Origin: Candidatus Jordarchaeales archaeon
GTDB lineage: Archaea; Asgardarchaeota; Jordiarchaeia; Jordiarchaeales; Freyrarchaeaceae
Length of the DNA: 7,653 nt
Assembly: GCA_038858525.1 (NCBI GenBank)
Contig: JAWCFL010000013.1
Location: 40,764-48,416 of the forward strand
Direction: 5' to 3'
The notes beneath the pieces are model-generated. The model worked only from the letters and a program-made list of their open reading frames with translations, made no database searches and was not told where the DNA came from. Shown here in pieces: positions 2,242 to 6,039 of this stretch. The translations under genes were made by a program, and so were the position numbers. Position 1 is the stretch's first letter. Each line of letters opens with the position of its first letter.

Positions 2242-3669
2242 GTGAGAACCCCTGAAGAGTACCGGGAAAGTTTATTCAAAATGAAGCCCAACATTTACCT
2301 TGAAGGAAAAAGGGTTGGAAGAGACGCTCCGGCGCTTCAAGGAGGAATAGGCGTCATATCTAAGACGTTCGAGCTAGTGGACAATCCGGAATTCAAAGAC
2401 CTGCTTGTGGCGACATCCCACATAACGGGAGGAAAGATAAACAGGTTCACTCACGTAAACCGTAGCCCCGAGGACCTCCTCAAGAAGCAAGAGATGATAA
2501 GGAAACTCTGCCACCTCACCGGAGGATGCATACAGAGGTGCATGGGATGCGACGCTATAAATGCTCTCTCCGTCATAACATACGAGGTTGACCAAGCCTT
2601 CGGAACAGACTACTACAAGCACTTCCTCAAGTACCTTGAGTACTTCCAGAAAAACGACCTCGTAGCTGCCGGCGCCCAGACCGATGTTAAGGGGGACAGG
2701 AGCCTCAGGCCGCACCAGCAAAAAGACCCAGACCTTTACGTGCGCGTGGTAAAGAAGACGGATGAGGGCATAGTAGTTAGAGGAGCAAAAAACCACATAA
2801 CCATGGCTGCCTACGCGGATGAAATCATAGTGCTACCAACAAGAATAATGACGAAGGAAGACGCAGACTGGTCAGTTTCCTTCGCCATACCAGCCGACAC
2901 GGAAGGGGTCAAGCTCATCACTAGGGCCTCTTCCTTCAGGCCGCGGAAAAAATTCAAGGCGCCCATAGCTGAAATAGGCTCAACGGACTCGTTCGTCGTA
3001 TTCGAGGACGTTTTCGTTCCGTGGGAGCGAGTCTTCCTCTGCGGCGAGTGGCAGTTTGCAGGGCTACTAGCACACCTCTTCGCCTTGTTCCACAGGCATA
3101 GCTATACCGGATGCAAGCCAGCACTATTCGATATACTCATGGGGGCAGCCGCACTGGTAGCAGACTACAACGGGGTGGCGGACAAGCCTCACGTCAGGTC
3201 GAAACTCGCCCACCTGGTTAGCCTAAGCGAGCTAGTCTACGCTGCAGGGATAGCTTCAGCCGTTAAGTCGCAGACCTATGGGTCAGGAACATGCGTGCCA
3301 AACGTAGTCTACGCAAACGTTGGCAGGAGACACGCAGGACTAAACGCCCACAACGCAATAGAAATCCTAACAGACCTCGCAGGAGGACTCCCAGCAACGT
3401 TGCCCTACGAGGAGGAATTCATAAACCCTGAAACAGCACCTCTAATGGAGAAATACATAGCCAGACGCTCAGAGGTCCCACCAGAAAACGTCCACCGCTG
3501 CTTCAGAATGCTCTCCGACATGCTGTGCTCCTCTCTGGGAGGAGTCATGGCGGTCGCAGACGTCCACGGAGGAGGCTCCCCCGTAATGGAGGAGATAGCG
3601 ATAATGGCAACATACGACATAGAGGAAAAGAAGAAAATAGCAAAATACCTCGCGGGAATAAAAGACTAA
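2242..3669 (+). CDS. abfD: 4-hydroxybutyryl-CoA dehydratase / vinylacetyl-CoA isomerase (AbfD)-like [4Fe-4S]/FAD protein, HpaB/4HBD superfamily
   Basis: 475 aa. Motifs INRFTH, GGCIQRCMGCD (C96, C100), QTDVKGDRSLRPHQQ.DPDLY, GIVVRGAKNHIT, VVFEDVFVPWERVF, HRHSYTGCK (H284, C291) and HGGGSP. All four cluster ligands of 4HBD are positionally present. The symbol denotes the family; exact substrate is unproven. Confidence 0.85.
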   Translation: MRTPEEYRESLFKMKPNIYLEGKRVGRDAPALQGGIGVISKTFELVDNPEFKDLLVATSHITGGKINRFTHVNRSPEDLLKKQEMIRKLCHLTGGCIQRCMGCDAINALSVITYEVDQAFGTDYYKHFLKYLEYFQKNDLVAAGAQTDVKGDRSLRPHQQKDPDLYVRVVKKTDEGIVVRGAKNHITMAAYADEIIVLPTRIMTKEDADWSVSFAIPADTEGVKLITRASSFRPRKKFKAPIAEIGSTDSFVVFEDVFVPWERVFLCGEWQFAGLLAHLFALFHRHSYTGCKPALFDILMGAAALVADYNGVADKPHVRSKLAHLVSLSELVYAAGIASAVKSQTYGSGTCVPNVVYANVGRRHAGLNAHNAIEILTDLAGGLPATLPYEEEFINPETAPLMEKYIARRSEVPPENVHRCFRMLSDMLCSSLGGVMAVADVHGGGSPVMEEIAIMATYDIEEKKKIAKYLAGIKD

Positions 3670-4536: not shown

Positions 4537-6039
4537 GTGAGTTATAACCACGTTACGCCCGACATAGTTAAAACGCTTGAAAGTATAGTGGGGAAAGAGT
4601 ACGTTTCAGCAGACGTAGCAATGAGGCACAGCTACCTCTCAAGGGGCATAATGGGGCTCGAAGCGACAACGCCTGAAGTAGTAGTAAGGCCGAGGTATGT
4701 GGAGGAAGTGCGGAAAGTCCTCATTCTCGCAAACGAAAACCACATACCTGTAACCCCCGCTGCAGGAGGATTAAGCGGCGGTTACGCGGCACCCCTCATT
4801 CAACCCGGAGGAATACTATTAGACCTCTCACGAATGGACCGCATAATAGAAGTTAACACCGACGCTAGGTACGTTGTTCTCGAGCCGGGAGTAAGGAGCG
4901 GCAAGGTCTGGGCGTACTTCAGAAAGGCAATGTGAAATTGCCCTGAAAAATACTACCCAGACTGGGCGCCCCCGGTTCCCGACGGCGCACCGCCAGCTGC
5001 AACCGTGGTAGGCGATGCTATTGAAAGAGGATTCAGCATGGTAACCGCAAGATATGGTCCACAGGCAGACATGGTTCTCGGCATGGAGGTCGTCCTTCCC
5101 ACAGGCGAAATAGTCAGGACGGGGAGCTGGGCTCTGCCTGGAGCAAAGCCCTTCTACAGGTGGGGTCTGGGGCCAAACTTCGACGGGCTCTTCTTAGGGT
5201 CCCAAGGAACAATGGGTGTCGTCACAAAGCTAGCCATAAAAATAGTTCCCCACCCACACTACAAGACGATAGTTGCCTACGGCATGGACAACCCATACGA
5301 CATGCAGGACTTCACGCTGGAAGTCTCCAAGTACGAGCTCGGCATAGCGGACCACCTAGTGATGGTTCAGGGAGGAAACTGGCCGCTCGTCATGACTAGG
5401 TGGCCGAAAGAAAAGGTTCCAACAGACTACGAGTTCTACAAGAAGCTCGGCATACCCCCATGGTGGATGAACTTCGAAATATGGTGTCACAGCAAGGAAG
5501 AGCTCGACTTCACAGTCAACAAGATACATGAGCTAGCTAAGGAGTACAACGCTAAAACCGGGCATGAAATAAAGGAATGGAAGCTGCACCCCAAGCAGAT
5601 AGCCAGCAGGCTCAAGAAGCCCAACAAGATAGCCATACCCTACTCGCTGTGGAAGGCTGGATTCCTATTCATCACGTGGTACACGCCTTGGAAGGATTGC
5701 GCCGAGTTCGCCGAGATCTACAACCAGAAGCTTGAGGAGTACGGGTTCCCGCCGGTAATGTGGATAGCTAGCATTGACCACTGCAGGCAAGCTATATGCA
5801 TGCCGATAGTTTGCTTCGACTACACTAACCCGGAAGACGTGCAACGCGTGCAGGAAGTTAACCGAATCACTACGGAGATATTCCTGGACAAAGGATGGTT
5901 GAACTACAGGCCTGACCCATACGTGCACGCTCCACTAACATTCGCCAGGGCGAAAGCGTACTATGACCTGCTCGTAAGACTGCGAAAAGTCATTGACCCC
6001 AACATGATAATGCACCCAGGCAGACTAGCAATGCCCTAA
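4537..6039 (+). CDS. FAD-binding oxidoreductase, VAO/PCMH/GlcD family; join(4537..4924,4949..6039), 492 aa after removal of a 24-nt intron
   Basis: Exon 1 has the FAD_binding_4 N-half (PEVVVRP...V.KVL.LAN...IPVTP..GG.SGG, GGILLDLSRMDRIIEVN.DARYVVLEPGV). Exon 2 continues in the same frame with YYPDWAPPVPDGAPPAATVVGDAIERG, YG...DMVLGMEVVLPTGEIVRTGS, DGLFLGSQGTMGVVTK and the C-terminal IDPNMIMHPGR. The two track ORFs are complementary halves of one domain in the same frame. Confidence 0.88.
4925..4948 (+). other. Putative 24-nt bulge-helix-bulge (EndA-type) mRNA intron
   Basis: Central 4-bp helix TCAG(4919-22)/CTGA(4943-46). 3-nt bulges AAA(4923-25) and AAA(4947-49), each 3' of the helix on its strand. 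Inner stem GGCAAT(4926-31)/ATTGCC(4937-42) with loop GTGAA containing the in-frame TGA. Outer pairing T4918-A4950, GTA/TAC and GTCTGGG(4906-12)/CCCAGAC(4956-62). Cuts after the 2nd bulge nucleotide give ...TTC AGA A|AA TAC... = FRKYYP, in frame. Confidence 0.8.

Follow-up and report, generated by a model that had tools for sequence, protein, structure and literature searches.

The question raised by this locus is whether a flavoenzyme gene with a stop codon inside its FAD-binding domain is broken, or whether the stop belongs to a short intron that is removed from the messenger RNA (mRNA). The gene lies in a 7,653-nt stretch of contig JAWCFL010000013.1 from a Candidatus Jordarchaeales archaeon; the whole stretch is referred to here as the window, and its coordinates are used throughout, unless the label of the window's own genome (G000), of one of the contigs of that genome (C numbers) or of an L-numbered sequence is given. 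As the sequence-only reading of this stretch had it, the gene occupies a single frame on the + strand (4537-6039, 500 codons) that is broken by one TGA at 4933-4935; the + strand translation across the insert, which stays in one frame throughout, is ...WAYFRKAM*NCPEKYYPDWAPP... (asterisk, stop). By Pfam search, the insert interrupts the FAD_binding_4 domain itself, and the read-through translation covers all 139 positions of that profile. The closest solved structures are flavoenzymes of the p-cresol methylhydroxylase / vanillyl-alcohol oxidase type (E ~1e-31), and the NCBIfam matches are GlcD-like and all sub-threshold. Judged by these matches, the gene encodes an FAD-dependent oxidoreductase of the VAO/PCMH family; with an HpaB-like gene upstream of it, the enzyme may plausibly act in phenolic or hydroxy-acid metabolism. 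In the following we argue that the 24-nt insert is very probably a bulge-helix-bulge (BHB) mRNA intron, excised by tRNA-type splicing, in an Asgard flavoenzyme gene.

The boundaries of the insert are defined by homology. All 17 full-length homologues that were aligned (50-76% identity; from Njord-, Sigyn-, Thor-, Loki-, Baldr-, Aig- and Bathyarchaeota-labelled sources) are without the eight inserted codons; the best intact homologue is 492 amino acids long, i.e., 500 minus 8, and at the junction the homologues read FRK(K/H/N/Y)YP, e.g., FRKKYPEW and MKKKYPGW. The sequence-only reading had predicted intron-less orthologues of just this form, with no 8-residue insert, and had placed the cuts accordingly; both proposals were borne out, as removal of 4925-4948 produces the junction FRK|YYPDW (bar, splice point), which matches the intron-less homologues. 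The predicted spliced RNA junction is TTCAGAA|AATACTAC, and the predicted peptide across it is ...VWAYFRKYYPDWAPPVPDGAPPAATVVGDAIER. With regard to the interrupted domain, the exon 2 translation (4951-6036) corresponds to FAD_binding_4 positions 93-139. The 24-mer itself occurs once in the genome, even with four mismatches allowed, which rules out a mobile repeat as the origin of the insert.

The RNA that surrounds these boundaries was then considered. The minimum-energy fold of 4896-4972 is a BHB, as described in the sequence-only reading, with an energy of -33.1 kcal/mol compared with -19.3 +/- 2.8 for shuffled sequences (z -4.9), and none of the 200 shuffles was as stable. Helix h', next to the bulge, has 6 bp here and reaches 9 bp in relatives; the exon helix h consists of 1 bp, a 1-nt bulge, 3 bp, an internal loop, and then 7-8 bp. 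In the minimum-energy fold, the outer helix is formed by 4905-4916 with 4951-4963, with breaks at C4913/U4954-A4955 and at the bulged C4917. It is an established rule that the archaeal splicing endonuclease, EndA, cuts between the second and third base of each 3-nt BHB bulge. The same cut rule is stated in PMC2738675. Overall, a 4-bp helix with two 3-nt bulges, flanking helices and gene-restoring cuts were all found here; at the level of sequence, the insert has every feature by which an archaeal BHB intron is recognised.

To place the insert in a phylogenetic context, the gene was searched in 40 related genomes. An intron at exactly this site was found in 5 of the 5 genomes of the window's GTDB family (its own and four others, in two genera), as well as in Logan contig L003 (98% protein identity) and in three JGI contigs (L033-L035), in which the alleles recur. 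The insert is thus carried by nine independent assemblies, namely the five family genomes and four metagenome contigs. The gene is uninterrupted in all six sister-family genomes and in ten more distant Asgard genomes, and the intron-less L010, L014 and L015 read TTCAGAAAA(C/A)ACTACCC across the site. By parsimony, a single gain of the intron would fall in the ancestral lineage of the window's GTDB family, once this had split from the sister family. As a separate observation, the outer-helix segment 4906-4912/4956-4962 (GUCUGGG/CCCAGAC, codons for VW...PD) is fully paired in the intron-bearing genomes, and only 5 of the 7 positions of the same segment pair, by hand count, in L010, an intron-less genome of the sister family. 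This contrast suggests that synonymous sites of the exons are tuned to the splicing motif.

Comparison of the intron-bearing sequences revealed six distinct versions of the intron, of 22, 24, 27, 29, 29 and 36 nt. Three of these break the reading frame, so that no coding constraint acts on the insert itself. The stop within the insert is TGA, TAG or TAA among the relatives. A sense codon in its place, which the sequence-only reading had named as the sign of a simple nonsense mutation or a sequencing error, occurs in none of the orthologues compared; instead, relatives have frame-breaking inserts of 22 or 29 nt, or TAG. BHB excision in the six versions leads to open frames with an identical FRK|YYP junction, 493-531 codons long in five of them, while that of L019 has 387 codons, being cut by the contig end. 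Each of the five other variants folds by itself into the same BHB (z -3.2 to -5.1). The six show no variation in the central helix, in the 5' bulge or in five pairs of the inner stem; the remaining, sixth pair of this stem is U-A, U.G or C-G, which amounts to one compensatory change, and the hairpin tip varies by indels, with a stem of up to 9 bp or an extra small stem. Variation in the intron is limited to this tip and to base 2 of the 3' bulge; it is to be noted that the latter base, which is free to vary, is under the cut rule precisely the last intron base removed. In the exon helix, the changes are synonymous and preserve pairing through wobble (U-A to U.G, G-C to G.U), with the exception of one cell of the alignment, and 99.2% of the alignment cells are paired, as against at most 45.5% with the partners slid.

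The oxidoreductase is not the only gene of this genome to be interrupted in this manner. The sequence-only reading had proposed that other BHB-interrupted genes be sought in the genome, and at least five further protein genes were indeed found, namely ppsA, cbf5, EF-2, rpl44e and a PurM-like gene. A strict scan, which combined structure, energy and restoration of the open reading frame (ORF), yielded the introns of ppsA (20 nt) and cbf5 (30 nt), and a homology-based census, for which the complete genome of a more distant Asgard archaeon (G021) served as reference, added EF-2 (29 nt), rpl44e (30 nt) and the PurM-like AIRS gene (30 nt); the census is insensitive at 35-70% identity, and its count is a lower bound. 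In four of the genes (ppsA, EF-2, rpl44e and PurM-like), excision joins abutting positions of one Pfam profile. The EF-2, rpl44e and AIRS introns are without an outer helix, i.e., of the relaxed HBh' form. The cbf5 intron sits between bases 1 and 2 of the catalytic Asp codon (GTL-D-P), and the crenarchaeal cbf5 intron is located at that same Asp-codon position (PMC2738675); the shared position may reflect either an ancient common origin of the introns or more than one insertion at a preferred site. Two more genes have probable introns with one central-helix mismatch each: a LeuD-like gene on C10 (29 nt; - strand, about 2705 from the reverse-strand end) and an EndoQ-like gene on C5 (24 nt; + strand, about 70253).

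Since splicing of a BHB intron is the work of proteins, the genome was examined for them. It encodes two EndA paralogues, at L001:1477-2049 (- strand) and L002:1189-1782 (+ strand), each with tRNA_int_endo_N and tRNA_int_endo (Pfam). One of them has its top match (E 1.6e-48) in PDB 3p1z chain B, presumably the catalytic chain of the heterotetramer from Aeropyrum pernix, with further matches to 3ajv_B, 2zyz_B and 2cv8_A; these too would be the catalytic subunits of heterotetrameric crenarchaeal enzymes. In a pairwise alignment with this paralogue, the other shares 32% identity and is without the catalytic His. In its predicted quaternary structure, the pair fits an (alpha-beta)2 EndA of the crenarchaeal type. 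An (alpha-beta)2 EndA with the L1 loop has been reported in Asgard archaea (PMC5829648), and the (alpha-beta)2 type has been linked to cbf5 pre-mRNA splicing (PMC2738675). RtcB is likewise encoded, on L028 (PF01139, E 5.4e-181), in an open frame without stops. The closest named relatives of this RtcB are from Freyarchaeota (93%) and Jordarchaeales (90%), which places the host among Asgard archaea of the Freyarchaeia/Jordarchaeia type and agrees with the supposition of the sequence-only reading that the lineage is outside the crenarchaeal cbf5 cases. Lastly, Aragorn recognised only 12 tRNA genes in this 92.7%-complete genome, 8 of the 12 with introns, some of them implausibly long; most tRNA genes are probably too heavily interrupted for recognition. 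The low count fits the heavy tRNA interruption reported for the clade, with introns in 92-95% of its tRNA genes (PMC11291895) and 2.0-2.4 intervening sequences per gene (bioRxiv 10.64898/2026.10.13.758758).

On the proposed mechanism, the exon parts of the transcript (UCAG and the outer helix) and its intron parts (the hairpin and CUGA) would fold together to form the motif, and the (alpha-beta)2 EndA heterotetramer would cleave between bases 2 and 3 of each 3-nt bulge. RtcB would ligate the exons and would probably circularise the 24-mer, and the spliced mRNA (...AYFRK|YYPDW...) would encode a continuous enzyme of 492 amino acids. We infer the actual cleavage and ligation, and EndA and RtcB as their agents, from sequence. 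As motif geometry is the sole ground for naming EndA, another nuclease and ligase might conceivably remove the insert from the RNA; however, the frame-restoring cuts follow the EndA rule exactly in the six length variants and in the five other genes, and EndA alpha, EndA beta and RtcB are all encoded. To our knowledge, no other activity acts on 3-4-3 BHB motifs, and we regard a different pair of enzymes as very unlikely.

Translational bypassing would give the enzyme with no RNA splicing at all. Translation would take off at Lys AAG (4924-4926), skip the hairpin with its stop, and land on AAA (4948-4950), and the window does offer a short coding gap with a hairpin and a nearby stop, and matching Lys triplets on both sides. 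Bypassing and splicing produce an identical protein, and therefore selection on the exons does not discriminate between them. The variants do so, since the landing triplets in L003, L009 and L019, where the bulges are AUA, AGA and ACA, are UAA, GAA and CAA as against a take-off AAG; none of these three matches a Lys peptidyl-tRNA, and UAA is a stop codon. The BHB cut rule, in contrast, removes the variable base of the 3' bulge, and the junction codon is therefore always AAA. Moreover, bypassing has no role for the exact 3-4-3 geometry, which is kept in the six variants and which also bounds the inserts in the five other genes, where the flanking codons are unrelated. We thus consider bypassing highly improbable.

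Selection on the exons is more informative on whether the gene is dead or truly split, i.e., a pseudogene made by the hairpin, or a gene for two assembling polypeptides of 132 and about 344 amino acids, the latter from GTG 5005, the earliest in-frame start codon in exon 2. Public gene callers do give two ORFs for this gene (132 and 344 amino acids), which is the mis-annotation as a split gene that the sequence-only reading had foreseen. However, when the spliced coding sequences were compared with those of relatives by the Nei-Gojobori method, dN/dS was 0.02-0.055 in exon 1 and 0.011-0.039 in exon 2, at dS of 0.55-2.2; both exons are under strong purifying selection. Such low values (0.01-0.055 over the two sides, with dS up to 2.2) were obtained from lineages all of which carry the insert, contrary to what a dead gene would predict, and the break falls inside FAD_binding_4. 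The 18 codons from the intron to the first start, which include the conserved DGAPPAAT, would be absent from a separate exon 2 protein, yet they have undergone synonymous changes only; in the 22- and 29-nt variants, these codons are translatable solely after splicing. In the genome, the gene has one match only, and no second copy was found. A dead or split gene is, in our judgement, hardly credible. Recoding of the TGA, by selenocysteine or read-through, with the eight residues as real protein, for which one could cite selenocysteine machinery in relatives of the clade (PMC11291895) and the in-frame length of the window's insert, has next to no probability, as does an assembly error, since at this site relatives carry TAG, TAA or an insert that breaks the frame, the eight residues are in no homologue, and the nine independent assemblies exclude an error.

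The interpretation of the insert as a BHB mRNA intron must itself be held against several observations that weigh on the other side. First of all, the outer helix is imperfect, in that one C bulges out and a small internal loop is present; the sequence-only reading had called the 3-4-3 BHB a textbook one, and whereas the TCAG/CTGA helix, the AAA bulges and the 6-bp stem did fold as it described, the adjective was slightly generous for the outer helix. The minimum-energy fold also shifts the 3' bulge by one base (5-bp helix, bulge 4948-4950), because the bulge can slide in the A-run; the canonical 4-bp register, with the bulge at 4947-4949 and the pair U4918-A4950, is equally available, and only its cuts, after 4924 and 4948, take out 24 nt and agree with the homologues. 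Covariation is weak, as 154 of 500 shuffles score at least as high as the alignment and one pair is compensatory, which is due to the existence of just six closely related variants. The spliced junction was absent from the JGI metagenome contigs in an exact-pattern scan, and a collection of 5.8 billion proteins had no full-length protein at least 90% identical to the spliced form.

Lastly, the BHB motif is not enriched in the genome. A motif scan (4-bp helix, inner helix of at least 5 bp, outer helix of at least 4 bp with one irregularity) returned 8050 motifs at least as good as the present one, compared with 7990 for a decoy of mirrored geometry. An energy filter left 18 motifs versus 10 decoys, and filters for ORF restoration and codon usage left the two equal (423 vs 431, and 44 vs 50); it is to be noted that ordinary gene junctions pass the ORF and codon filters, and that cut-offs in codon score lose true cases. 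Because the motif counts match those of the decoy, they were not used as evidence, and the homology-based census was used instead. The 8050 motifs arose from ~4.6e8 position-by-length combinations, i.e., ~1.8e-5 each, and since there are four equivalent cut registers at the site, the coincidence of motif and insert by chance is ~7e-5. The evidential weight resides in the motif coinciding with boundaries that are defined by homology, together with its conservation. The features of the locus and of the other interrupted genes are collected in Table 1.

Table 1. Coordinates of the interrupted oxidoreductase gene, of its predicted splicing motif, and of the further introns in the same genome
Feature	Position	Strand	Length	Remarks
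Exon 1	4537..4924	+		Ends at base 1 of the junction Lys codon; 4537-4923 = FAD_binding_4 positions 1-80
Putative BHB intron	4925..4948	+	24 nt	Bulge base 3 (5'), inner hairpin, central-helix 3' strand, 3' bulge bases 1-2
In-frame TGA	4933..4935	+		Within the hairpin loop of the intron
Exon 2 including stop codon	4949..6039	+		Starts at base 2 of the junction Lys codon
Outer exon helix, 5' strand	4905..4918	+		Partner 4950-4963; C4913 and C4917 unpaired
Central helix, 5' strand UCAG (exon 1)	4919..4922	+	4 bp	Same in all six variants
5' bulge AAA	4923..4925	+		Predicted cut after 4924
Inner hairpin	4926..4942	+		Stem 4926-4931 with 4937-4942; loop 4932-4936
Central helix, 3' strand CUGA (intron)	4943..4946	+		Pairs with 4919-4922
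3' bulge AAA	4947..4949	+		Predicted cut after 4948; base 2 is A, U, G or C among relatives
ppsA intron	G000 C1:42657-42676		20 nt	PPDK_N: exon 1 2-113, exon 2 115-317
EF-2 intron	G000 C4:81118-81146		29 nt	GTP_EFTU: exon 1 2-80, exon 2 82-187
rpl44e intron	G000 C1:178227-178256		30 nt	Ribosomal_L44: exon 1 1-36, exon 2 38-74
PurM-like gene intron	G000 C2:6357-6386		30 nt	AIRS: exon 1 2-48, exon 2 49-100
cbf5 intron	G000 C1:177182-177211 = L030:883-912	+	30 nt	Excision rebuilds GHAGTL-D-PKVTG

Some other homologues and the neighbouring genes deserve mention. L004 (JGI 3300033148, Promethearchaeota-labelled) contains a homologue with a 30-nt in-frame insert with two stops (2965-2994) at another site (GPQGD|NFMCGE). 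By hand, this insert folds into a relaxed BHB that lacks an outer helix (helix GGCG/CGCU; bulges AUA and AGA), the predicted cuts of which restore GDNF; the folding energy of the region is unremarkable (z -0.3). A second intron site had been suggested by N-truncated homologues, but it was not retained, as a clean insert is present in L004 alone: the truncation of P0091 and P0096 is due to contig ends, and P0069 is the intact P0001 under another gene call. L005:2485-3000, on a 109-kb ENA contig, was also rejected as an intron case, since it has several stops and a frameshift in its first third; this homologue is either a degraded gene or the product of an error-rich assembly. In the window, an HpaB-like gene is found upstream of the oxidoreductase (2242-3669), and an ORF on the - strand (2-1651), which continues beyond the window edge, encodes a sugar-nucleotidyl transferase and a hexapeptide-repeat domain fused to a phosphoglucomutase/phosphomannomutase N-terminal domain.

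Taken together, the oxidoreductase intron likely belongs to a genome-wide, spliceosome-independent system of mRNA splicing in Asgard archaea of the Freyarchaeia/Jordarchaeia type, in which the tRNA genes are saturated with BHB introns, the same EndA and RtcB routinely splice housekeeping (EF-2, L44e, Cbf5) and metabolic (PEP synthase, flavoenzyme) transcripts, and gains continue at the family level. If true, close archaeal relatives of eukaryotes depend on mRNA splicing to express essential genes, and mRNA splicing by proteins alone may regularly take part in gene expression in the clade most often tied to the origin of eukaryotes. The gain of an intron in a coding sequence would here be recent enough to be dated, one family having it and the sister family being without it. 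Standard annotation would systematically call such genes split, truncated or pseudogenes, and metabolic reconstructions would be distorted as a result. The case also offers a concrete, testable substrate, namely a 77-nt transcript and two EndA subunits.

Among known systems, the noncanonical tRNA introns of Freyarchaeia, Jordarchaeia and Atabeyarchaeia, as presented in PMC11291895 and bioRxiv 10.64898/2026.10.13.758758, resemble the oxidoreductase intron in their size (~20-30 nt), in the hairpin-plus-BHB form, in the presumed enzymes and in the lineage; the searched parts of the same two sources have no mention of mRNA introns. The host RNA of the oxidoreductase intron, in contrast, is an mRNA, and the exon half of the motif must therefore also encode protein, and mis-splicing would alter the frame. 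In the splicing of HAC1/XBP1 mRNA, Ire1 cleaves, and Trl1 (in yeast) or RtcB (in metazoans) ligates. The likeness is that of a short, stem-loop-bounded mRNA intron that is removed by proteins independently of the spliceosome and joined by a tRNA ligase, with a change of frame; the differences are that the nuclease is Ire1 and not EndA/Sen, that two 7-nt loops take the place of a 3-4-3 BHB, and that HAC1/XBP1 splicing is regulated by stress, whereas nothing about the oxidoreductase intron points to regulation. Bypass elements, such as those of phage T4 gene 60 and the mitochondrial byps, are also short hairpin gaps with a stop that are missing in homologues, but they need matched take-off and landing codons, which are missing in three of the six variants here.

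The closest parallel is the intron in the cbf5 pre-mRNA of Crenarchaeota, which was reportedly described by Watanabe in 2002 and by Yoshinari in 2006. This intron (Yokobori 2009, PMC2738675; Desulfurococcales and Sulfolobales) is likewise a short BHB intron in a coding sequence, too short to encode anything, cut between bulge bases 2 and 3 in a host with (alpha-beta)2 EndA, and its gene is annotated as split. The differences are equally clear. The cbf5 product is an RNA-modifying enzyme and its hosts are Crenarchaeota, compared with a metabolic flavoenzyme of an Asgard archaeon here; the cbf5 introns mostly have relaxed motifs, as against the near-canonical motif at this site; and at least six introns of this kind, that of the oxidoreductase included, are present in the one genome. 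For the cbf5 intron, splicing was demonstrated with cDNA and by cleavage in vitro, whereas that of the oxidoreductase intron is predicted from sequence. Homology of the two introns was rejected, since the genes differ and a separate intron occupies the cbf5 position in this genome. In the literature searched, introns removed by the splicing endonuclease from archaeal coding sequences are documented for cbf5 of Crenarchaeota only, and no report was found of BHB introns in Asgard protein-coding genes. The predicted oxidoreductase intron is thus of the same mechanistic kind as the cbf5 intron, in a new gene and a new phylum, and it is one of several in its genome.

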